Virus record (IMG/VR): IMGVR_UViG_2529292908_000017
Location: 1-9,888 of that record
Origin: a virus
Taxonomy: Duplodnaviria > Heunggongvirae > Uroviricota > Caudoviricetes
DNA length: 9,888 nucleotides
Strand: one strand, 5' to 3'
In this document: positions 1 to 9,888 of the stretch, piece after piece
How the letters are laid out: each line of letters starts with the position of its first letter
Numbering within the stretch: the first letter of the stretch is position 1
Program-made: the position numbers and the translations under genes
Notes under the pieces: generated by a model
What the model saw: the letters and a program-made list of their open reading frames with translations, nothing else
What the model was told of the DNA's origin: nothing
Databases searched by the model: none

Positions 1-1242
1 ATGGCGAGAAAAACACACCCATTAACCACAGTGCAGATCAAAGCAGCCAGACCAGCGCAAAAGGAGTACACCCTGCAGGACGGCGGAGGGCTTTTTCTCC
101 TGGTCAAACCGTCTGGATCAAAACTCTGGAGATTTTCCTACTACCGACCATCGGACAAAAAAAGAATATTGCTGAGTTTTGGATCGCTTGAAGATGTTTC
201 CCTGGCTGATGCCAGAAAACGCCGTAGCGAGTACAGGACGTTAATCAGTGCCGGAACTGACCCGCAGGACCACGAGAGGCAAAAAAGAGAGACAGAGGCC
301 CGAAGACAAGGGAACACGTTCGAAAATGTGGCGGCGGCATGGTACCAGGTGAAAATCAGCCAGAATCTGGCCCCCAACACGATTAAAGACATCTGGCGTT
401 CGCTGGATAAATATGTATTCCCGTTCATCGGCAACACGCCAATAGATACCCTCACCGCCCGAAGGTTCGTTGAAGTGCTTACCCCCATCAAGGAGCGCGG
501 CAACCTGGAAACACTCAAGCGGGTTTTACAGCGCGTTAATGAGGTAATGGATTACGCCGCCAACAGTGGGCTGATTGATGCCAATCCGGCTATGAATGTG
601 CGTAAGGCGTTTCCCTCACCTGTAAAAAAACATATGCCAACAATCCGCCCCGAACAGCTGCCGGAGCTTATGCAGGCTTTATCAGTATCGGCAACAGAAC
701 GGCAGACCAGATTACTGATTGAATGGCAGTTACTGACCGTAACCCGTCCCGCCGAAGCGTCATCAACGCGGTGGGATGAAATCAACCTGGACGCGAAGCA
801 ATGGACGATACCTGCCGGACGCATGAAGATGCGCAGGGATCACGTTATCCCGCTTTCCGGTCAGGCTATGGCGGTGCTGGAGGCCATGAAACCAATCAGC
901 CACCACCGCAATTACGTTTTCCCAAGTCTGAAAGACCCACAGCAGCCGATGAACAGCCAGACAGCTAACGCAGCATTGCGGCGTATGGGATTCGCTGGCG
1001 TGCTGGTGTCTCATGGATTACGCGCCATATTCAGCACAGCAGCGAACGAGGAAGGATTCGAGCCGGACGTAATAGAGGCGGCACTTGCCCACGTCGACAC
1101 CAACGAAGTTAGACGGGCATACAACCGGAGCAACTACATAGAAAAACGCATCGTGCTGATGCGCTGGTGGGGCGAATTTGTCGAGGCTGCGGCGACGGGC
1201 GTAACCCTCGCCAGTGGTAAAAGGGGTATCCGAGCCGTGTAG
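1..1242 (+). CDS. int: Tyrosine recombinase / integrase, P4-type (satellite / genomic-island family)
   Basis: 413-aa ORF starting at window base 1. N-terminal arm-type region (GGGLFLLVKPSGSKLWRFSYY) typical of P4-family integrases; C-terminal catalytic region with HGLRAIFST (H-x-x-R) and RAYNRSNY (tyrosine nucleophile region). Recognition by eye, no search. Confidence 0.9.
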   Translation: MARKTHPLTTVQIKAARPAQKEYTLQDGGGLFLLVKPSGSKLWRFSYYRPSDKKRILLSFGSLEDVSLADARKRRSEYRTLISAGTDPQDHERQKRETEARRQGNTFENVAAAWYQVKISQNLAPNTIKDIWRSLDKYVFPFIGNTPIDTLTARRFVEVLTPIKERGNLETLKRVLQRVNEVMDYAANSGLIDANPAMNVRKAFPSPVKKHMPTIRPEQLPELMQALSVSATERQTRLLIEWQLLTVTRPAEASSTRWDEINLDAKQWTIPAGRMKMRRDHVIPLSGQAMAVLEAMKPISHHRNYVFPSLKDPQQPMNSQTANAALRRMGFAGVLVSHGLRAIFSTAANEEGFEPDVIEAALAHVDTNEVRRAYNRSNYIEKRIVLMRWWGEFVEAAATGVTLASGKRGIRAV

Positions 1243-1319
1243 CTGTACAGAAAACCAGTAAAAACTACGAAAACCATGTAAAACCGTCGTATAATTGCAT
1301 CAAATTTAACGACAAGGCC

Positions 1320-1571
1320 GTGAAACATGAAACCGTTAAGATGCAAAAAAATATCAGATGCAATTGCGACGGGCTGCAACTGGCCCTGATGGTTCAGCAT
1401 GAATTTTGGTCAACCTACGATCCGGAGGACAGGACGACGGCCCCATCAAAAAAACAGGTAGTAGATTTTCTGGTATCCCGTGGCGCTTCCAGAAATCTGG
1501 CGGTAAGTATTGATAAGGTCGTACGTCCGGCATCTATGAAGATCGGAGGCAGGCCCAAAAAATGGCGGTAA
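1320..1571 (+). CDS. Hypothetical small protein (83 aa)
   Basis: ORF with AAGG about 10 nt upstream of the ATG, ending 10 nt before a strong intrinsic terminator. A TATAAT hexamer lies at about 1290-1295. No family recognised. Confidence 0.45.
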   Translation: MKHETVKMQKNIRCNCDGLQLALMVQHEFWSTYDPEDRTTAPSKKQVVDFLVSRGASRNLAVSIDKVVRPASMKIGGRPKKWR

Positions 1572-1580
1572 CAATCCTGG

Positions 1581-1606
1581 AAGCGGCAGAAATGCCGCTT
1601 TTTTTA
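1581..1606 (+). terminator. Rho-independent terminator
   Basis: Stem AGCGGCA / TGCCGCT (7 bp) with GAAA loop followed by a T6-7 run, immediately after the 1320..1571 ORF. Confidence 0.7.
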
Positions 1607-1629
1607 TAATTCCATTTCAAATCATCAAT

Positions 1630-1735
1630 ATAAAAAACGGTGTATACCGTTTAAAAACGGTGGGAACTGTTTTTACCCATATCCGATGATTTACCGTATT
1701 TGTCACCGGAATACACCGGATTCACAAGGTAAATC
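1630..1735 (+). promoter_or_regulatory. Putative promoter/operator region upstream of alpA
   Basis: 10-bp direct repeat AAAAACGGTG at 1633-1642 and 1653-1662; inverted half-sites ACGGT-N4-ACCGT at 1637-1650; direct repeat CACCGGA at 1704-1710 and 1714-1720; AAGG RBS at 1726-1729 before the ATG at 1739. Function inferred. Confidence 0.3.
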
Positions 1736-1738
1736 ACG

Positions 1739-1944
1739 ATGGAAGCAATCAGAAAAATTATCTTTCGCCAGGAAGTAAAAAAATTATCCACATCAAGGCA
1801 GACAGCACGCTGCAAAGCATGATCAACGCCGGAGAATTTCCGCAGGGTTTTCGCGTTGGTTTACGCCGTCGCGGATGGTATGAGGATGATGTGTTGGCCT
1901 GGCAGAAAGAACGCGAACAGGAAGCACGCGGAACGGCTGCTTAA
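1739..1944 (+). pseudogene. alpA: AlpA-family (prophage CP4-57-type) HTH regulator, apparently disrupted by a 1-nt frameshift
   Basis: Frame from ATG 1739 reads MEAIRKIIFRQEVKKLSTSRQTARCKA then stops (TGA 1820-1822). The -1 frame continues LQSMINAGEFPQGFRVGLRRRGWYEDDVLAWQKERE to TAA 1942-1944. Joined, they match the AlpA pattern (TG-x-SR-x-T-IY-x-hh-x-G-x-FP ... G-W-x-E-x-D-h-x-x-W). Length 206 nt is not a multiple of 3; shift localised to about 1803-1811. Confidence 0.6.
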
Positions 1945-2092
1945 CGGGTATCACAGATATGACAAACACGAAAAAAGCGGCCCCGATATGGAGCCGCCTT
2001 TCTGAACAATTAACCCGCTGCGCCTTATGTGTATGTGATCCCAAACATAAGCACGGGGATGATAGCCGCTATCAGGCTGGTGGGCAATGCAA

Positions 2093-2266
2093 TCAGTCTG
2101 GTTCAGTTCGTTGCCATACCTGCAATGAGCGCTTTTCCCTATACTCTTTAAGGAATTGCTCAAGGGCAAAAGCACATGGTGCGAATCTTTCTGATTCATG
2201 CTCTATCTTTCTGCGCCGTCTTTTCCGTGCCGGTGATAATGTTTTGGTCAATTCTTTATCGGTCAT
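2093..2266 (-). CDS. Hypothetical small basic protein (57 aa from second ATG; 62 aa from first)
   Basis: Minus-strand ORF MTDKELTKTLSPARKRRRRKIEHESERFAPCAFALEQFLKEYREKRSLQVWQRTEPD, with AGGA 7 nt upstream of the internal ATG (+ coordinates 2264-2266). Composition is protein-like, unlike the overlapping 186-aa + ORF. No homologue recognised. Confidence 0.3.
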   Translation of the reverse strand: MTDKELTKTLSPARKRRRRKIEHESERFAPCAFALEQFLKEYREKRSLQVWQRTEPD

Positions 2267-2692
2267 TGTGTTGTCCTGCATAGCAATACGCCGTAATACC
2301 TCACACCACGGCGCTGGTGATGGTTACTCCTGCTCTTTGGCCTTGCGCCGCTGGCGGCGTTTGATCTCACCTTTAACGGCAGTAACTATAAATTGCGCCT
2401 TGCTTTCACCTTCATCTAAATTTTTTCTAAGTCTGCAACAACATCATGCGGGAATCTGGCATTTAACTGTTGCGACTTATTATTTGTTGAACCTGTTGCC
2501 ATTACTGAATCCTCTCTAAGTTGGTGCGATTCAGTATACACAAAAAAAATTTCAGAGAAAGGCTTGAAGTGCGATTCACTTACTGATAGGTTAAAAACGA
2601 ATGGTGCGATGCACCAAACAACAACGCCCCGCAGTGGTGGCACACATGCAGGGCGTCTAACCACCAACGATAACGAGAGTATCGAGGTAGCT

Positions 2693-2896
2693 ATGAGAAA
2701 TCATACCACACACCCGCAAGGGCGGGACTCGCACGACCTGAATAAATACATCTGGCGTTTTATCGCCCTGAGCACGGCACAACCGCGCGTGATTACCATT
2801 GAGGCCACCAGCGAACAGGAAGCACGCCTGCAATCCCCGGCTGGCTGCGTGATGGTATTCGCTGCCCGTATTCGCCAGGGGTCACATCATGCGTAA
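2693..2896 (+). CDS. Small protein, paralogue A of a tandem pair; possibly Ash / Icd-like family (unverified)
   Basis: ATG 2693 preceded by GAGG (2684-2687). C-terminal motif YIWRF ... EATSEQEARLQSP ... FAARIRQGSHHA is repeated in the next gene, with synonymous third-position differences (CGT/CGC, CGC/CGT). The longer TTG start at 2564 in the ORF track has no credible RBS. Confidence 0.5.
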   Translation: MRNHTTHPQGRDSHDLNKYIWRFIALSTAQPRVITIEATSEQEARLQSPAGCVMVFAARIRQGSHHA

Positions 2897-3575
2897 AAAC
2901 CGCTTGCAAAAAATTATCACGGGGCTGTATGCTTCCCCCGTCGCCCACATGGCGACCGGGTTTAGCAGCCTGAATACATCTGGCGGACAGCCGCCCACAT
3001 CCGATAAGCGGTTTTTTTGTGTCCGTAAACCTACCCATACCCGCATTATGGCGGGGCGTAACGGGGGAGCCTTTGTGCTCGCTGGTTTCCAGATGACCAG
3101 TCTGCTAACCCTGTTACGTCTCGCCACCATGTTTAGCAGCGTAGTAGCGAGACTCCTTAAAATTCATCTGGGAGCCTTTCACATGGCTGTATTCGCACGC
3201 CCTTATTTTGTCTGGCGCTTTATGCAGTGCCTGACAGACAGTATTGCAATATTCACCGTTACCGCTGCCACTGAGCGCGAAGCACGTGCACAGCTGCCGC
3301 ACGCACATCTTATTTTTGTCGCCCGTATTCGCCAGGGGGGGGGAGTCATGCATAAAATACCCTTTGATGTTCTTGTTCATTCTGAAAACGCATTAATCCG
3401 CGCAAAGGAAATGGACGCATTACTACTTAAGTTAATTGATGTGCCGGAAAGTGGCGATGAATCTGATTCAATGATGTTTTCTGCCGTGCGTACGCTATTA
3501 ACGCCTGTTATTAATGAATTAAATACAGTGATGGCAATTCACGAGAATAATAAAGCGCAGCACAACGGAGAATAA
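2889..3575 (+). CDS. Composite ORF: N-terminal segment of unknown nature, then paralogue B (from internal ATG 3183 with GGAG RBS), read through a G9 tract into a 75-aa C-terminal segment
   Basis: Continuous 228-aa ORF; ATG 2889 overlaps the stop of the previous gene (ATGCGTAA). Residues from 3183 (MAVFARPYFVWRF ... TAATEREARAQLP ... FVARIRQGGG) parallel paralogue A. G9 tract at 3335-3343; with G10 the paralogue would end ...QGGGSHA* (compare A: ...QGSHHA*) and a separate ORF would start at ATG 3348. Confidence 0.4.
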   Translation: MRKNRLQKIITGLYASPVAHMATGFSSLNTSGGQPPTSDKRFFCVRKPTHTRIMAGRNGGAFVLAGFQMTSLLTLLRLATMFSSVVARLLKIHLGAFHMAVFARPYFVWRFMQCLTDSIAIFTVTAATEREARAQLPHAHLIFVARIRQGGGVMHKIPFDVLVHSENALIRAKEMDALLLKLIDVPESGDESDSMMFSAVRTLLTPVINELNTVMAIHENNKAQHNGE

Positions 3576-3580
3576 AAAAC

Positions 3581-3880
3581 ATGAAAAATAAAAATTCTGG
3601 CGTTACTGCCAGCGGCCCCGCTCGTCCTGAATTTATGAACGGCGATATTTACCGCGATAAATATGGCGGCATGGTAACGATTAAAGGCGTGGCAGAACGG
3701 CGCATCACCTACCGTCGTGAAGGCTACGAATATGATTGCGTGATGCCTGTTTATCAGTTTCGGCGTGATTTTTCTCTGGTACAGGCAGCGCCCCGCAGTA
3801 AACCAACCAGCAGGGAGAAAGCACGCGCCAATATTCAGGAAATAAAAAAGATGCTTAACGTATTCAGGGGTAAAAAATGA
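3581..3880 (+). CDS. Hypothetical protein (99 aa), translationally coupled to the primase
   Basis: ORF with GGAG upstream; its TGA stop (3878-3880) overlaps the primase ATG (3877-3879) as ATGA. Protein-like composition; family not recognised. Confidence 0.6.
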   Translation: MKNKNSGVTASGPARPEFMNGDIYRDKYGGMVTIKGVAERRITYRREGYEYDCVMPVYQFRRDFSLVQAAPRSKPTSREKARANIQEIKKMLNVFRGKK

Positions 3881-5625
3881 AACTGGCACCGAACGTAAAA
3901 AAACAGCCACGCGGAATAAAACACAAAGACACAGAGGTAATTATTTTCGCGGGTAGTGATGCCTGGTCGCACGCGAAACAATGGCAGGAGCAGGATGGCC
4001 CCGCATCCGGCGATAATGTGCCGCCTGTGTGGCTTGGGCCAAATCAGCTTGCCGAACTTGATGCACTGAAAATTGTTCCGGATGGGAAAAAGCGCGTAAG
4101 GCTGTACCAGGCCGGAGAACTGGATTTGGTGGAGACCAAAAAGATTGGTCAGAAGCTGGCGGCAGCAGATATTCAGGACGCAAATTTTTACCCCGAAGGA
4201 ATGCACGTCCAGAAGTGTGAAAACTGGCGGCGCTATCTGAATGCTGAGCGTGAAAATATTGCCGCAGGGCTTACCATGCCGGAGCAGAAAAATACGCAAC
4301 TGGCACAAATGGCAGACAGTGAGCGCGCGCAGCTGCTTGCCGAGCGCTTTGATGGCGTTTGTGTGCATCCTGAAAGTGAAATCGTTCACGTATGGCGCGG
4401 CGGGGTATGGTGTCCGGTCAGCACAATGGAGCTGAGCCGCGAAATGGTGGCGATCTATTCAGAGCACAGGGCCACTTTCAGCAAGCGCGTAATCAATAAC
4501 GCCGTGGAAGCGTTAAAAGTTATTGCCGAACCAATGGGCGAGCCGTCCGGCGATTTGCTGCCGTTCGCCAATGGTGCGCTTGACCTGAAAACGGGGGAAT
4601 TTTCCCCGCACACGCCGGAGAACTGGATCACCACGCACAACGGCATTGAGTACACGCCACCAGCACCAGGGGAGAACATCCGCGATAACGCGCCAAACTT
4701 TCATAAATGGCTTAAGCACGCAGCCGGAAAAGACCCGCGCAAGATGATGCGTATATGTGCCGCGCTGTACATGATTATGGCGAACCGGTACGACTGGCAG
4801 ATGTTTATTGAGGCCACCGGAGACGGCGGGAGCGGTAAAAGTACATTCACGCACATAGCCAGCCTTCTGGCAGGGAAACAGAACACGGTAAGCGCTGAAA
4901 TGACATCGCTTGATGATGCTGGTGGACGTGCGCAGGTTGTCGGGAGTCGTCTTATCGTCCTGGCTGACCAGCCGAAATATACAGGCGAAGGAACGGGCAT
5001 CAAGAAAATCACGGGCGGTGACCCCGTGGAAATTAACCCGAAATATGAAAAGCGTTTTACGGCGGTAATCAGGGCGGTGGTGCTGGCGACCAACAACAAC
5101 CCGATGATATTCACCGAACGGGCCGGAGGTGTGGCACGTCGTCGCGTGATTTTCCGTTTCGACAATATCGTCAGTGAGGCCGAAAAAGACAGGGAGCTAC
5201 CGGAAAAGATTGCGGCTGAAATCCCTGTGATTATCCGCCGATTACTGGCGAACTTTTCCGCCCCTGAAAAGGCACGGGCTTTACTCATTGAACAGCGTGA
5301 CGGTGATGAAGCACTGGCGATAAAGCAGCAAACGGATCCGGTTATTGAGTTTTGCCAGTTCCTGAATTTTCTGGAGGAAGCGCGCGGCCTGATGATGGGG
5401 GGCGGTGGCGATTCAGTGAAGTACACGACCAGGAACAGCCTTTACCGCGTCTATCTGGCGTTTATGGCATACGCAGGCAGGAGCAAACCGCTAAACGTAA
5501 ATGACTTTGGCAAGGCTATGAAGCCAGCCGCGAAAGTTTACGGACATGAATATATTACGCGGAAAGTTAAGGGAGTAACGCAGACTAACGCAATAACAAC
5601 AGACGATTGCGACGCGTTTTTATAA
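3877..5625 (+). CDS. Phage/plasmid primase-helicase, P4-family C-terminal domain / D5-like SF3 NTPase (satellite pri-rep type)
   Basis: 582-aa ORF with AGGGGT RBS. Walker A P-loop ATGDGGSGKST, followed by motifs typical of D5 / P4-alpha-type helicases (LIVLADQP Walker B-like, VVLATNN). Immediately followed by an iteron array. N-terminal ~300 aa not assigned. Confidence 0.88.
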   Translation: MKLAPNVKKQPRGIKHKDTEVIIFAGSDAWSHAKQWQEQDGPASGDNVPPVWLGPNQLAELDALKIVPDGKKRVRLYQAGELDLVETKKIGQKLAAADIQDANFYPEGMHVQKCENWRRYLNAERENIAAGLTMPEQKNTQLAQMADSERAQLLAERFDGVCVHPESEIVHVWRGGVWCPVSTMELSREMVAIYSEHRATFSKRVINNAVEALKVIAEPMGEPSGDLLPFANGALDLKTGEFSPHTPENWITTHNGIEYTPPAPGENIRDNAPNFHKWLKHAAGKDPRKMMRICAALYMIMANRYDWQMFIEATGDGGSGKSTFTHIASLLAGKQNTVSAEMTSLDDAGGRAQVVGSRLIVLADQPKYTGEGTGIKKITGGDPVEINPKYEKRFTAVIRAVVLATNNNPMIFTERAGGVARRRVIFRFDNIVSEAEKDRELPEKIAAEIPVIIRRLLANFSAPEKARALLIEQRDGDEALAIKQQTDPVIEFCQFLNFLEEARGLMMGGGGDSVKYTTRNSLYRVYLAFMAYAGRSKPLNVNDFGKAMKPAAKVYGHEYITRKVKGVTQTNAITTDDCDAFL

Positions 5626-5636
5626 TTTTTTGCAAT

Positions 5637-5865
5637 GTCTGTCTACCCTGTCTACCTGAGTAAAGAAAAATACATTTAATTCAGTATATTAACTTAGGTA
5701 GACAGCCTTTTTTCACTGTCTACCTACTATCTACCCTCTCTACCTGATTTTACCTGAATCAGACAGGGAGGTAGATACGGGGTAGATAGTGGATAAAAGC
5801 ACTCTACCCCGCTGAAAGCCGCGCCATTACTGGCATGAGAGCCAGTAAGGTAGATAAGGTAGACA
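5637..5865. repeat. Iteron array, putative replication origin
   Basis: About 11 copies of the heptamer GTCTACC / GGTAGA(C/T) in both orientations (e.g. 5641-5647, 5650-5656, 5697-5703, 5718-5724, 5770-5776, 5781-5787, 5849-5855, 5858-5864) around an AT-rich core (about 5657-5695), directly downstream of the primase-helicase gene. Confidence 0.65.
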
Positions 5866-5913
5866 AGGGGAGGCACAACTCAAAACTTTTTAAACGAGGG
5901 GGTAAAAATAAAA

Positions 5914-6171
5914 ATGCGCACATCAGGAAAACTTAATAATCAGAAGAAGCAGCATAACCGCGCCATTGACCTTACAGAGCACTGGCTGAGAGTGGCGATA
6001 AAAATCATCGACCGCAACACGGGGGAAGGATACGCGAAAGCACATCCCGACCTGATAAGCGCATTCATGACCACGGCGGCAGCAAACTTTGCCACGCTGA
6101 CAGAACGGGAGATTGCCGAAGCGGAACAGGTGACAACCATCAACGTTAAAACCGGAGAGCAGACAGCATGA
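5914..6171 (+). CDS. Hypothetical protein (85 aa), coupled to ssb
   Basis: ORF with GAGGGGG upstream; its stop overlaps the next ATG (ATGA at 6168-6171). No family recognised. Confidence 0.5.
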   Translation: MRTSGKLNNQKKQHNRAIDLTEHWLRVAIKIIDRNTGEGYAKAHPDLISAFMTTAAANFATLTEREIAEAEQVTTINVKTGEQTA

Positions 6172-6590
6172 CAGCACAGATAGCGGCTTACGGGCGGCTG
6201 GTGGCTGACCCGCAGTTAAAGACCACCAGCAAAGGGACACAAATGGCGATGGCGAGTATGGCGGTTCCCCTGCCATGCAGCCAGGCAGATGACGGAACGG
6301 CGACGATGTGGTTATCTGTCCTGGCGTTTGGCAGACAGGCCGACGCACTGGCAAAACACCACAAAGGCGAACTCCTGAGCGTGGCGGGTAATATGCAGGT
6401 GAGCCAGTGGACAGGCCAGAACGGCGAAACGCGGCAGGGCTGGCAGGTTATCGCAGACAGTGTAATCAGTGCCAGAACGGCGCGACCGGGCGGCAAAAAA
6501 GGTCAACAGGGGCAGGCTACTGACGCACTGAACAGGGCAAAACAACAGGCGGGAAATGATGATCCGTACGGGGATAACATACCGTTTTAA
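6168..6590 (+). CDS. ssb: Single-stranded DNA-binding protein (SSB-like OB fold with acidic C-terminal tip)
   Basis: 140 aa. N-terminal OB region aligns by eye with E. coli SSB (YGRLVADPQLK vs VGNLGQDPEVR; WLSVLAFGRQADALAKHHKGE vs [21 protein letters not shown]). Gly/Gln-rich linker and C-terminal DDPYGDNIPF resemble the SSB tail DDDIPF. Confidence 0.78.
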   Translation: MTAQIAAYGRLVADPQLKTTSKGTQMAMASMAVPLPCSQADDGTATMWLSVLAFGRQADALAKHHKGELLSVAGNMQVSQWTGQNGETRQGWQVIADSVISARTARPGGKKGQQGQATDALNRAKQQAGNDDPYGDNIPF

Positions 6591-6606
6591 GCAACGAGTA
6601 ACAGAG

Positions 6607-6628
6607 GCCGGAGCAATCCGGCTTTTAT
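6607..6628 (+). terminator. Rho-independent terminator after ssb
   Basis: Stem GCCGGA / TCCGGC with GCAA loop followed by TTTTAT. Confidence 0.65.
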
Positions 6629-6861
6629 CAGTTGAGTCCGTCACACTACGCAAAAAAAAGCCGGAATATTCCGACCCTTTCATCACCAAAGAGAATAATT
6701 TATGTCTTTGAACTTGTAACGCTGTACAGAATGACACGTAACGCCGGATAAATAAACGAAGATTGAAACTTTGCACACTATTGCATAGCAATGCATAAAG
6801 ATGCCAAACAAGGCAGATGATAAAATTAACGCGACACTTTTACTAAGTATTAAGAGGTTAT

Positions 6862-7902
6862 ATGAGTGATTTATATTCGCCAGCCATGTTAATACAGGTT
6901 GTTAATGCCGAAGATATTCAATGGCAGATTAATTCTTTATTTATAAACCTGTTTTTTAAGCGAGTCGTTACATTTGAGACGCGGGATATTGCGCTTGATA
7001 TTATTGACGATCCAGACATCCCGATGGCTGCATTTTGTTCCCCTATGGTTGGTAGTAAAGTCTCACGCGATGAAGGCTACGAATCAAAAGTAATTCGCCC
7101 TGGCTATATGAAGCCAAAAAGTAGTATCGACCCAAATAAAATAGCCGTTCGTCAACCAGGCGTATCACCTGAACAATTCAATGCATATTCATCACGCAGT
7201 TTCAAAATAAAGCGAGCGTTAGTAAGACAAGCGCAGGCAATTCGTGCGCGTATTGAGTGGCTTGCTGTTCAGGCGGTTACAACGGGGAAAAATATCATTG
7301 AAGGCGATGGAATTGAACGTTATGAACTGGACTGGAATATAAAACCACAAAATATTATCACGCAGTCCGGCGGCACGGAGTGGAGCGGTAGAGATTTATC
7401 AACATTTGATCCAAACGATGACATCGAAGAGTACGCAGAAATCAGCGAAGGTACTACAAATATCATCGTAATGGGCCGCAACGTATGGAAAAAATACCGC
7501 GCCTTTAAAGCAGTAAAAGATTGCCTTGATACTCGACGGGGATCTAATTCCATTCTTGAAACGGCCCTGAAAAATCTTGGGGATTCTGTAAGCTTCAAGG
7601 GTTACGTTGGCGATGTTGCTATTGTGGTATATAGCGGACGTTATACCGACGAGGACGGCAAAGAAAAATATTTCCTTGATCCTGATTTGATGGTGCTTGG
7701 CAACACATCATTACAGGGCATCGTTGCCTACGGTGGCATTCAGGATCCTGAGTTAATCAGAATGGGGCTGACTAAAGCCGAACTTGCGCCGAAAAATTAC
7801 ATCGTACCAGGTGATCCGGCTATTGAATATGTGCAGACGCACAGCGCACCGCAACCAATACCGGCCCGCATCAATCGTTTTGTTACCGTTCGCATTGGTT
7901 AA
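6862..7902 (+). CDS. Major capsid protein, phage lambda gpE family
   Basis: 346 aa with AAGAGG RBS. Long colinear matches to remembered lambda gpE: NIITQSGGTEWSGRDLSTFDPNDDIEEYA (lambda NITQSGGTEWSKRDKSTYDPTDDIEAYA); FKAVKDCLDTRRGSNSILETALKNLGDSVSFKGYVGDVAIVVYSGRY ... MVLGNT (lambda FKAVKEKLDTRRGSNSELETAVKDLGKAVSYKGMYGDVAIVVYSGQY ... MVLGNT). Confidence 0.9.
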   Translation: MSDLYSPAMLIQVVNAEDIQWQINSLFINLFFKRVVTFETRDIALDIIDDPDIPMAAFCSPMVGSKVSRDEGYESKVIRPGYMKPKSSIDPNKIAVRQPGVSPEQFNAYSSRSFKIKRALVRQAQAIRARIEWLAVQAVTTGKNIIEGDGIERYELDWNIKPQNIITQSGGTEWSGRDLSTFDPNDDIEEYAEISEGTTNIIVMGRNVWKKYRAFKAVKDCLDTRRGSNSILETALKNLGDSVSFKGYVGDVAIVVYSGRYTDEDGKEKYFLDPDLMVLGNTSLQGIVAYGGIQDPELIRMGLTKAELAPKNYIVPGDPAIEYVQTHSAPQPIPARINRFVTVRIG

Positions 7903-7911
7903 GGGGGAGCA

Positions 7912-8253
7912 ATGGCTACTCATTACACTGAACTCATGGCTGGCACTGAAGCACTGGTTACTACGTTGGGGATATTTTCAGCTAATAAAGGGGTAATTCC
8001 TGCATTTACGCCACTGATGCAAGAAGATGCAACTGGTGCACTGGTGGTATGGGATGGAACGAGCGCAGGCAAAGCTGTTTATGTTTCCGCTGTACAAATC
8101 GATACAGCGACAAAAACGCAGGCTCAGGTTTATAAAACCGGCGTCTTAAATGTTGATGCTCTGAACTGGCCTGAGTCTGTAACACAACTATCAGCAAAAG
8201 TTGCTGCGTTTGTTGGCTCAGGTATTTCTGTTCAGCCGCTGGCACGTGTGTGA
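7912..8253 (+). CDS. Head decoration protein, phage lambda gpD family
   Basis: 113 aa with GGGGGAG RBS. Matches remembered gpD: TPLMQEDATGALVVWDGTSAGKAV (lambda [24 protein letters not shown]), YKTGVLNVDALNWPE (YKSGTFRYEDVLWPE), AAFVGSGISV (TAFAGTAISIV). Confidence 0.85.
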   Translation: MATHYTELMAGTEALVTTLGIFSANKGVIPAFTPLMQEDATGALVVWDGTSAGKAVYVSAVQIDTATKTQAQVYKTGVLNVDALNWPESVTQLSAKVAAFVGSGISVQPLARV

Positions 8254-8262
8254 GGTACGAGA

Positions 8263-8607
8263 ATGATTGAAAGAGATAGTCAGCTACGAGAGCTATTAGA
8301 TATCGATGACAAAATGAGTTTAAGCGAGCGCCTTGTTGATATGGATCAGGTAGTGGAGCTTACAACCCTTAGCCGTCGCACATTGCTAAACCTTGAGGCT
8401 CGCGGAGAGTTCCCCGAACGCGTACAGGTTACGAAAGGGCGCAAGGCATGGTATTTAAGCGAGGTTGTTGCGTGGATTAACAACATTCCGCGCGCATCAA
8501 ATTATTGCCTTGTTCCCACCCCCGAAAAACCTGATGCGGCGTTATGCCTCAAGATTGAACGCGCCAGGCGTAATGCCCTGAAAGGACGCAATAAGTTGAT
8601 TGGTTGA
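8263..8607 (+). CDS. AlpA/MerR-like helix-turn-helix DNA-binding protein (114 aa)
   Basis: GAGG RBS. Central segment VVELTTLSRRTLLNLEARGEFPERVQVTKGRKAWYLSEVVAWI fits the AlpA / excisionase-type HTH pattern, with N- and C-terminal extensions. Lies between the decoration gene and cos. Confidence 0.65.
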   Translation: MIERDSQLRELLDIDDKMSLSERLVDMDQVVELTTLSRRTLLNLEARGEFPERVQVTKGRKAWYLSEVVAWINNIPRASNYCLVPTPEKPDAALCLKIERARRNALKGRNKLIG

Positions 8608-8631
8608 TGAAATTAGGGCCCGTTCTGGCTG

Positions 8632-8830
8632 GCGGGTCCTTTCCGGCGATCCGGCAGGCTACGGGGCGGCGACCTCGCGGTTTTTCGCTATTTATGAGCC
8701 TTTTCAGGGGGGTGGTGGTGGTTTTGTTGTTTGATCTATCTTTATGAATGAAAAGGGAAAGATGCAAGCAATACACCAACCTGAAGCAGTAATTAAGTTG
8801 GTGTATTAATGAAATCTCATCTGATGAACA
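8632..8830 (+). other. cos site 1 (+ orientation): lambda-like cosQ/cosN (cosN 8664-8675, GGGCGGCGACCT) followed by a divergent cosB-like region up to the terS start
   Basis: GCGGGTCCTTTCCGGCGATCCGGCAGGCTACG-GGGCGGCGACCT-CGCGGTTTTTCGCTATTTATGA is near-identical to the remembered lambda cos junction. Downstream lacks lambda R-site-like GAAACGACA elements but has an 11-bp perfect inverted repeat (8770-8780 / 8797-8807). Confidence 0.75.
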
Positions 8831-8837
8831 AAAAAAC

Positions 8838-9350
8838 ATGGCGAAAAGCTGCCGTGTAAGTGCGACAGCGTTCGACAAGTGGGGAGTAACTCCCGTTGAG
8901 CGTAAAGGCCGTGAGGCGTTTTATGATGTTGCCAGCGTGATAGAAAATAGGGTTAACAATGCAATTAGCCAGCTTATAAACGACAAAGGCGAGATTGACG
9001 ATGATGAACTTTTACGAGTCAGGATCAGATTACTGACAGCACAGGCAGAGGCGCAGGAACTTAAAAACGATCGCGATCGCGGTGACGTGATTGATACTGA
9101 GTTTTGCCTGTACGCGCTTTCAAAGCTGGCGAGTCAGATTTCATCAATCATGGACAGCCTCCCGCTTACTATGCAAAGGAGCTTCCCACAGATTACCCCC
9201 GCCATGCTGGATAGGCTTAAAAGGGAAGTGGTTAAAGCCTGTAATGCCAGTGCCAGAGTTGCCGACAACCTCCCACAGATACTGGCTGATTACTTGAAAG
9301 AAACAACCGGAAACGTACCGGAAAAGTTGCTACAGAAGAAAGGCGAGTAA
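8838..9350 (+). CDS. Terminase small subunit, lambda Nu1 family, with divergent N-terminal DNA-binding region
   Basis: 170 aa. C-terminal two-thirds matches remembered Nu1: LTAQAEAQELKNDRDRGDVIDTEFCLYALSKLASQISSIMDSLPLTMQRSFPQ (lambda LTRAQADAQELKNARDSAEVVETAFCTFVLSRIAGEIASILDGLPLSVQRRFPE). N-terminal ~45 aa only loosely similar. An upstream ATG at 8824 (MNKKTW...) is out of frame by 1 nt across an A7 tract. Confidence 0.85.
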   Translation: MAKSCRVSATAFDKWGVTPVERKGREAFYDVASVIENRVNNAISQLINDKGEIDDDELLRVRIRLLTAQAEAQELKNDRDRGDVIDTEFCLYALSKLASQISSIMDSLPLTMQRSFPQITPAMLDRLKREVVKACNASARVADNLPQILADYLKETTGNVPEKLLQKKGE

Positions 9351-9369
9351 CAGACGCGCAATTATTGAA

Positions 9370-9580
9370 CAAAACTGAGAAACGACATGAAAGCGTCATA
9401 AATCGCCATTTTAGATGATTACCGTGTCGTTTCTTTTTATTGTGTATCTATTTAAAAACAAATAGTTATGTTCGAGAAGTACCGACATGCTTTTTCCAGA
9501 AAATTTTTCATAAACAGATAAAAACCGCGAGGTCGCCGCCCCGTAACGGGTCCATAATTCCAGGAAGGACCCGACGACAC
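9370..9580 (-). other. cos site 2 (inverted): cosN at 9530-9541 with a lambda-like cosB (R3 / IHF-I1 / R2 / R1-like elements) on the terS-proximal side
   Basis: The reverse complement reads ...CCCGTTACG-GGGCGGCGACCT-CGCGGTTTTTATCTGTTTATGAAAAATTTTCTGG ... CGAACATAACTATTTGTTTTTAAATAGATAC ... AAAGAAACGACACGG ... CATGTCGTTTCTCAG, paralleling the remembered lambda left end (cosN, I1 IHF site CGTCATAACTTAATGTTTTTATTTAAAATACC, R2 GGAAACGACAGG, R1 CTGTCGTTTCC). No terminase gene follows in this orientation. Confidence 0.7.
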
Positions 9581-9606
9581 CAGACAATCAGAACGATGGG
9601 TGCACA

Positions 9607-9888
9607 ATGACAGAAGCCGAAATACTGGGATTAATCCGCCGTGCTGGTGGAATCAGCCAGCAGACTGACGAACAGGCCACGCAGCCGGACAGCGTGACAG
9701 CCGAAAATTATGCGCGTGTTGTTGCTGAGGTGATGCGCCGTGATGGTATCCAGCTTAATGATGTGGATATGCGCAACATACGGATCCGCGTTCTTGAAAT
9801 GCTGGCCTACCGTCGCCGCGTGCAGACGTACAGGGAAAAAGCAAAAATTACGTACCACTGGAAGAAGCCGGAGCGGTTACGGCGGTAA
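9607..9888 (+). CDS. Hypothetical protein (93 aa)
   Basis: Complete ORF ending at the last base of the window (TAA 9886-9888). Weak RBS. No family recognised; Arg-rich C-terminus. Confidence 0.45.
   Translation: MTEAEILGLIRRAGGISQQTDEQATQPDSVTAENYARVVAEVMRRDGIQLNDVDMRNIRIRVLEMLAYRRRVQTYREKAKITYHWKKPERLRR

Follow-up and report, generated by a model that had tools for sequence, protein, structure and literature searches.

Why would a phage satellite encode an SSB, or single-stranded DNA-binding protein, of its own, and why would the gene for that protein overlap the end of a small gene to which no function has been assigned? Both questions are raised by a 9,888-nucleotide stretch of DNA, positions 1 to 9,888 of IMG/VR record IMGVR_UViG_2529292908_000017 (hereafter the window), in which an 85-residue open reading frame (ORF), here called ORF85, is followed by the gene for a 140-residue SSB. 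Judged from its gene content, the window is a phage satellite of Escherichia coli of the Gram-negative phage-inducible chromosomal island (GN-PICI) type. We find that the SSB belongs to a distant lineage in which its divergent C-terminal tip is the norm, and that the core of ORF85 and the SSB behave in sequence comparisons as a portable cassette found behind many different replication initiators. The explanation we favour, with a probability of roughly two in three, is that this is an accessory replication cassette, in which the SSB supplements host SSB at satellite replication forks by way of host partner proteins and ORF85 is a co-expressed accessory.

A distant bacterial-type SSB

The SSB gene and the three parts of its product are laid out as follows.

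6168-6590, + strand: SSB gene, 140 amino acids, ATG start (ORF list)
6168-6470, + strand: OB-fold domain, SSB residues 1-101 (Pfam, AlphaFold2 and Foldseek)
6471-6557, + strand: linker, SSB residues 102-130, short, basic (+5) and predicted to be disordered
6558-6590, + strand: tip DDPYGDNIPF and stop codon (sequence)

Domain searches and structural modelling agree in identifying the 140-residue protein as a bona fide bacterial-type SSB. Pfam PF00436 matches residues 5-99 (E = 1.7e-15; 57.4 bits against a cut-off of 26), TIGR00621 scores 58.4 bits against a cut-off of 53.95, and nearly all sequence matches in the Protein Data Bank (PDB) are SSBs. An AlphaFold2 model places residues 1-101 in an oligonucleotide-binding (OB) barrel with the strand pattern of a beta-barrel and block-mean predicted local distance difference test (pLDDT) scores of 81-92, followed by a low-scoring, disordered tail at residues 104-140. 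When this model was compared with the PDB by Foldseek, it matched SsbA, SsbB and the M. tuberculosis SSB at the top of the list, and also E. coli SSB, with E values down to 1.6e-9 and template-modelling scores normalized to the target (TMt) of 0.7-0.8. The original prediction, made from the letters of the window alone, had called the protein SSB-like, and that identification is borne out by the modelled fold (Foldseek E ~1e-9, TM ~0.8).

Over the OB domain the protein is 25% identical to E. coli SSB (comparison sequence verified against PDB 1eqq). Three of the four aromatics compared are conserved, W48, F54 and W81 aligning with the DNA-stacking residues W54, F60 and W88 of the E. coli protein, and we infer from sequence and model that the OB core binds single-stranded DNA (ssDNA). 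The overall plan is also that of E. coli SSB (PDB 1eqq and 4mz9), with an OB core, a disordered linker and an amphipathic tip ending in Ile-Pro-Phe-COOH; the satellite protein is shorter, however, at 140 residues versus 178, and its linker has 29 residues and a charge of +5, whereas that of E. coli SSB has ~55 residues, is rich in Gly, Gln and Pro and is near neutral.

No close relative of the SSB was present in 50,697 phage records, the best match being 31% identical, and on this basis the protein appears to represent a distant, satellite-associated lineage. A recent copy of the host ssb gene was considered as its source and rejected, given the 25% identity to E. coli SSB; a recent copy of a plasmid ssb was likewise rejected, since the inspected plasmid matches of ~70% identity (H60 and H63) proved to be PICI-like and phage-like elements scored as plasmids. 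PADLOC returned no match for the SSB.

The tip is the norm of its lineage

The sequence confirms that the protein terminates in DDPYGDNIPF, its C-terminal end reading GNDDPYGDNIPF. This tip had been described as unusual, a description that holds relative to E. coli SSB and fails within the protein's own lineage, where the tip is the norm and its Asn falls at the most polymorphic position. Among 115 full-length SSB relatives returned by homology search, the last ten residues are mostly D-D-P-[Y/F/W]-G-D-x-I-P-F, with a lineage consensus of DDP[YFW]xDx[IL]PF, and the individual positions, counted back from the terminal residue as 0, are occupied as follows.

Position 0: Phe in 115/115
Position -1: Pro in 112/115
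Position -2: Ile in 110/115
Position -3: most variable, with N in 58, D in 23, G in 21, E in 11 and S in 2
Position -4: Asp in 115/115
Position -6: an aromatic residue in 115/115

Set against the E. coli end MDFDDDIPF, the satellite tip retains an aromatic residue at -6 (Tyr for Phe), the Asp of position -4 and the terminal Ile-Pro-Phe-COOH, whereas two of the three tip Asp have given way to other residues, with Gly in place of Asp(-5) and Asn in place of Asp(-3); the last ten residues of the satellite protein contain three Asp. DDDIPF is the amphipathic consensus of SSB tips, Phe177 of E. coli SSB is practically invariant and fits into a hydrophobic pocket on each partner, and the change of Pro176 to Ser is the ssb-113 allele (PMC3632105). 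In complexes with RecO and ExoI the ordered part of the tip is its hydrophobic part only, and a loss of binding equal to that caused by a single change of Pro176 or Phe177 was reached only when all three Asp were replaced (PMC3152348). In the published peptide data, then, the hydrophobic anchor dominates partner binding. Because the satellite tip keeps the anchor residues and still has three Asp, and because the hydrophobic part carries most of the published effect, we regard it as a conservative variant of the lineage, expected to retain docking on the host's SSB partners.

One relative departs from this pattern: an SSB in a 22.9-kb circular record of Klebsiella pneumoniae (L103, 5001-5447), 69% identical to the window protein, has the tail ...PPFDDSIPL, with a terminal Leu where Phe is otherwise invariant. 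Its gene is coupled through an ATGA to an unrelated 126-residue ORF and lies behind a different primase-helicase.

The linker that joins the OB domain to the tip has pLDDT values of about 45-50, with a helix weakly predicted at residues 116-127. At least three alternative linker cassettes occur among the SSB relatives, and it appears from these comparisons that the linker has been exchanged or remodelled more than either the OB domain or the tip.

A conserved start region couples the SSB to an upstream gene

Three features define how the two genes are joined and where the pair ends.

5914-6171, + strand: ORF85, 85 amino acids, ATG start (ORF list)
6154-6157, + strand: GGAG resembling a Shine-Dalgarno site for the SSB, within the 3' end of ORF85 and 10 nt upstream of the SSB ATG
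6604-6625, + strand: GC-rich hairpin and then a U-rich stretch, following the SSB stop

That ORF85 overlaps the SSB gene, as originally proposed, is correct: the SSB ATG (6168-6170) lies on the ORF85 TGA (6169-6171) in a 4-nt ATGA overlap, CAGACAGCATGACAGCA, and an ORF85 homologue ends in the same ATGA in 79 of the 83 loci examined. Both are genuine genes under purifying selection, with ratios of non-synonymous to synonymous substitution rates (dN/dS) against diverged relatives of 0.04-0.18 for the SSB and 0.07-0.39 for ORF85. The possibility that the pair is a decaying remnant was rejected on these low dN/dS values and on its wide conservation.

The exceptions to the pairing are informative about what is being conserved. 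At two loci (L022 and L031) at most the last dozen codons of ORF85 (...VKTGEQTA*) remain, joined to another upstream ORF, with GGAG and ATGA both retained; at two others (L082 and L091) ORF85 is reduced to a 3' remnant that directly follows the iterons, the short repeats of the origin-like region; and at one (L047) ORF85 is frameshifted. The block ACCGGAGA(G/A)...CATGACAGCAC is retained even in loci where ORF85 has been replaced or deleted, and the ATGA overlap is also present with unrelated upstream ORFs. Four of these loci (L022, L031, L082 and L091), together with the Klebsiella relative, argue that the conserved unit is the SSB start region, including a ribosome-binding site embedded in the 3' end of whichever gene precedes it; comparison of the loci thus points to coupling with the upstream gene as the rule, with ORF85 the usual but dispensable occupant of that place. 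Since the SSB has a GGAG of its own and is found without an upstream ORF in L082 and L091, its dependence on upstream translation may be partial.

The co-transcription that had been asserted for the two genes we regard as plausible. In a consensus scan the interval separating ORF85 from the primase gene contained no sigma-70-like promoter, and the SSB stop is followed by a strong hairpin; both fit a single transcript that starts upstream and ends after the SSB. The hairpin has a predicted RNA folding energy of -18.4 kcal/mol (z = -4.2), was not flagged by a consensus terminator scan, and is likely to be both an intrinsic terminator and the cassette's right-hand boundary; most other E. coli islands cease to be homologous at ~6626 (position 1027 of a query spanning 5600-6900).

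One SSB behind many replicons

Of 5426 complete E. coli genomes, 1733 contain matches to 5914-6590; the matching places number 2292, with as many as six in one genome, and RefSeq labels the genes there 'single-stranded DNA-binding protein' and 'hypothetical protein'. Cassette relatives were found on 424 IMG/VR contigs. We dissected 84 loci, of which 80 came from IMG/VR contigs and three from annotated E. coli records, the remaining one being that of the window itself. In these the SSB is mostly 97-99% identical to that of the window, whereas the upstream primase ranges from 26% to 99-100% identity, some primases sharing only their N-terminal 120-160 residues with the window's; the same SSB allele stands behind at least five primase types (L022-L101). 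The iterons likewise differ, with GGTAGAYA in some loci, TAACCCGC in others and neither in many. A capsid-forming PICI-like element that was scored as a plasmid (L102) has the same module too.

This pattern is that of a portable cassette made up of the ORF85 core and the SSB. An element-specific SSB, which the original prediction had envisaged, finds no support here: SSB alleles 97-99% identical in amino-acid sequence follow primases whose identity to the window's is 26-99%, and iterons of different types, so the SSB is apparently not tied to one replicon. The same comparison argues that its partners are constant ones, ssDNA and host proteins, and not the satellite's own primase.

ORF85 belongs to a large family of small proteins

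ORF85 matches phrog_1231 (E = 1e-47; residues 6-84 of 85), a large family that has no assigned function, Pfam model or solved structure. Its N-terminus of ~20 residues is variable and rich in Lys and Arg, its core is strongly conserved, and it carries the family loop motif GxGYAxxHPEL as GEGYAKAHPDL. AlphaFold2 models it as a small helical hairpin, with helices at residues 5-35 and 45-78 joined by the loop GEGYAKAHP (pLDDT 69). Such a hairpin is too simple to be placed by fold, and Foldseek returned nothing significant from either the PDB (best E 3.7) or the BFVD viral structures (best E 1.0). A profile search of PDB sequences gave as its best hit a designed helical protein (E 0.01) and no functional lead; Pfam, NCBIfam and PADLOC gave no match; and tblastn against the 50,697 phage records gave none either. 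In these searches we detected no enzymatic or DNA-binding domain in ORF85 and no homology to annealases or known SSB partners.

ORF85 has 163 close homologues, and 681 remote relatives emerged when 1.84 billion representative proteins were searched with a profile; those inspected are mostly 70-130 residues long and share IDxxFGxGYAxxHPELxxAFM. All ten remote relatives tested matched phrog_1231, and no Pfam family covered the shared region in any of the ten. To see them in context we searched DNA with a degenerate pattern for GxGYAKxHPEL, taking one genome per species, and recovered 19 true members, many of which lie near the edge of an 8-kb block so that their context is partial. In Nitrosomonas islands the member is flanked by an AlpA gene and the gene for a DUF927 primase-helicase; others lie beside a DnaG-type zinc-ribbon gene, after an integrase, or upstream of phage head genes (Xenorhabdus). 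These settings suggest that the family resides mainly in the early and replication regions of integrative elements. Among the branches seen, only that of Escherichia lies next to an SSB.

Four alphaproteobacterial genomes (Neomegalonema and Rhodobacteraceae) present a different setting, in which the remote relative lies between the genes for the A and B subunits of a CoA-transferase (L004 1063-1383, L006 3-278, L007 1584-1847 and L015 ~7223-7495); this setting is chromosomal and non-mobile, its neighbours having been identified by eye from sequence similarity. Another remote family member, P0337 (149 residues), ends in the SSB-tip-like sequence ...PVYPEDLPF, the sole such case among 150 listed. 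Two proteins, P0001 (220 residues) and P0101 (165 residues), each from one contig, are in-frame fusions of ORF85 with the SSB, the junction in P0001 joining ...VKTGEV straight to TAQIAAYG...; such fusions could reflect rare deletions or errors of assembly.

Within the Escherichia elements, the type of ORF85 N-terminus tracks the type of primase and origin, while the core and the SSB stay constant, and DNA alignments to other genomes typically start 44-109 nt into ORF85. Such starts may simply mark recombination at the edge of a conserved core; alternatively, the N-terminus could be matched to the replicon.

The satellite and its replication module

The other genes and elements of the window place the pair within a recognizable module.

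1-1242, + strand: tyrosine integrase gene, at one end of the element
3044-3131, + strand: C4 antisense RNA (Rfam RF01695, 72.7 bits, E = 4.7e-13)
3581-3880, + strand: gene for a DUF4222 protein
3877-5625, + strand: primase-helicase gene (Pfam D5_N 2.7e-15, DUF5906 5e-10, Pox_D5 8e-5)
5639-5868, no strand: iteron-rich, origin-like region of 230 bp, with GGTAGAYA and TRTCTACC repeats in both orientations
6862-7902, + strand: lambda E-like major capsid gene
7912-8253, + strand: gpD-like decoration gene
8263-8607, + strand: AlpA-family gene, between the decoration and small-terminase genes
8838-9350, + strand: Nu1-like small terminase (TerS) gene

Several features of GN-PICIs are present together: an integrase at the end, AlpA, a primase followed by iterons, a capsid gene, and all major genes on one (+) strand. 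The primase-helicase, whose relatives RefSeq labels 'DNA primase family protein', is the satellite's replication initiator. The iterons that follow its gene form direct and inverted repeat families, with nine copies of the motif within the 700 bp that precede the start of the SSB, and they lie before ORF85, in keeping with the earlier proposal that the pair lies just after the origin. Iteron sets 3' of pri are the described origin layout in GN-PICIs (PMC6092414), and it is the GGTAGAYA iterons 3' of the primase gene that match 5639-5868 to those origins. In its order of integrase, primase, iteron origin and late genes on one strand, the window resembles the replication module of the EcCICFT073 type and of HE-PICI 11capE. 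Its close relatives are E. coli chromosomal islands of the same gene order, situated beside tRNA-Pro/yejM or between cspD and clpS. We saw neither a portal nor a protease gene in the window, a difference from the capsid-forming PICI-like element mentioned above (L102). By similarity to described elements (PMC6092414, PMC10111431), induction, replication and packaging of the satellite would depend on a helper phage.

Two further observations concern the satellite itself. The C4 antisense RNA, an immunity RNA of the P4 type, lies inside a long ORF-poor region upstream of the replication genes, and the AlpA-family gene set between late genes is a second one in this satellite.

What the cassette might do

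In the accessory replication cassette that we favour, induction of the satellite by its helper phage would produce a long transcript running rightward across the primase gene and the origin, from which ORF85 and the SSB would be expressed, the latter translated through the ATGA overlap and with the help of its own GGAG. The additional SSB would coat ssDNA at satellite forks while phage and satellite replication compete for host SSB, and its tip would dock in the hydrophobic pocket and basic rim of the host's SSB partners, recruiting host proteins (Pol III chi, DnaG, PriA and others) in place of an element-specific partner. ORF85 we take, with low confidence, to be a replication-accessory or adaptor protein. 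The position of the gene fits published classifications of GN-PICIs, in which SSB, Primase and DUF5906 genes form a 'Replication' category colocalized with mapped origins (PMC10111431); the SSB, its tip and the small gene upstream of it were not analysed in the GN-PICI papers that we found (PMC10111431, PMC6092414).

Several observations weigh against this explanation. The fourth DNA-stacking aromatic of E. coli SSB, W40, has no counterpart in the satellite protein, which has a shorter loop there, and the tetramer-interface residue His55 corresponds to Leu49. The protein is basic, with an isoelectric point of 8.85 versus 5.44 for E. coli SSB, and its linker is charged +5, so its behaviour may differ from that of the host SSB. 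Replication in E. coli has been shown for an EcCICFT073 clone that has pri-ori and no additional PICI genes (PMC6092414), which makes the SSB at most an accessory factor and not an essential one. As for its companion, some SSB loci lack ORF85, which is replaced by an unrelated ORF or absent, no SSB was seen near remote ORF85 relatives in the 19 loci examined (several at a block edge), and no mechanistic tie connects ORF85 with the SSB.

SSB genes on mobile elements have precedents of more than one kind. Conjugative-plasmid SSBs, such as the Ssb of the F plasmid, supplement host SSB during a burst of ssDNA; they are close relatives of the host protein and have the canonical tip, whereas the satellite SSB lineage is distant. 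The SSB of phage HK620 is a mobile-element SSB far from that of the host and with a non-canonical tip (NDYPPF), and its last six residues are required for the adjacent Sak4 to act on SSB-coated ssDNA (PMC5928155). The neighbour in HK620, however, is a RecA-like annealase, and here it is an 85-residue helical hairpin in which no enzymatic or DNA-binding domain was detected.

The HK620 example suggests that ORF85 and the SSB might likewise be a dedicated pair, the tip recruiting ORF85 or another satellite protein. The ATGA-coupled arrangement at 79 of 83 loci, the rare in-frame fusions (P0001 and P0101) and the ...PEDLPF tail of a remote ORF85-family member would all suit such a unit; we nevertheless consider it unlikely, because the SSB is found with an unrelated upstream ORF or none in L022, L031, L082, L091 and L103, remote phrog_1231 members have no SSB nearby in the loci examined, each fusion is known from a single contig and could be a deletion or an error, and the featureless hairpin of ORF85 has no detectable homology to annealases or known SSB partners. 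A variant gives ORF85 the part of a replicon-matching adaptor, its variable, basic N-terminus following the primase and origin type and its invariant helical core following the SSB, so that the cassette would act as a portable 'fork-starter' linking the initiator to SSB-coated DNA or the host replisome, and the SSB, with its basic linker and modified tip, would bias replication resources from helper to satellite. It draws on three hints, namely the fusions, the ...EDLPF tail and the co-variation of the N-terminus with primase and origin, and we give it little credence for now.

A different possibility is that the SSB serves mainly to disturb helper or host replication, by titrating partners through its tip, entering mixed or poisoned complexes on ssDNA or displacing helper SSB. 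PICIs generally encode helper-interference functions downstream of the origin (PMC6092414), and a basic protein with an atypical linker, 25% identical to host SSB and of a satellite-associated lineage (best match 31% in the phage records), might be suited to such a role. The tip, however, retains the residues for normal partner docking and fits the use of partners as well as their titration, the gene lies in the replication block and not in an interference or packaging block, and PADLOC does not recognize the protein; interference is, in our judgement, improbable. Still further from the evidence is a conflict with host immunity, in which the SSB would be a decoy for, or a liability towards, SSB-sensing systems (Retron-Eco8, AbpAB, Hna, DARNA and DRT10). 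Phage SSBs trigger several E. coli defence systems according to the part of that literature available to us, and PICIs are known carriers of immune functions; against this, neither ORF85 nor the SSB has a PADLOC match, the SSB belongs to the replication module, and nothing in the sequence suggests sensing or evasion, so that we rate this reading very improbable. The accessory replication cassette remains the account that we prefer.

Implications for PICI biology

Thousands of genomes already have this SSB gene annotated, and work on PICIs has noted it; in the literature searched we found no experimental characterization of this SSB or of ORF85. If the SSB acts as proposed, it would be a further case of a mobile element that carries its own copy of a host hub protein for replication, a role that would be useful for PICI annotation and not surprising. 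In the part of the literature available to us, foreign SSBs trigger several E. coli anti-phage systems, and this non-host SSB is present in about one complete E. coli genome in three. What is most interesting beyond this is the phrog_1231 family and the possible link that ORF85 may provide between replicon and SSB: a function for phrog_1231 would annotate hundreds of genes.

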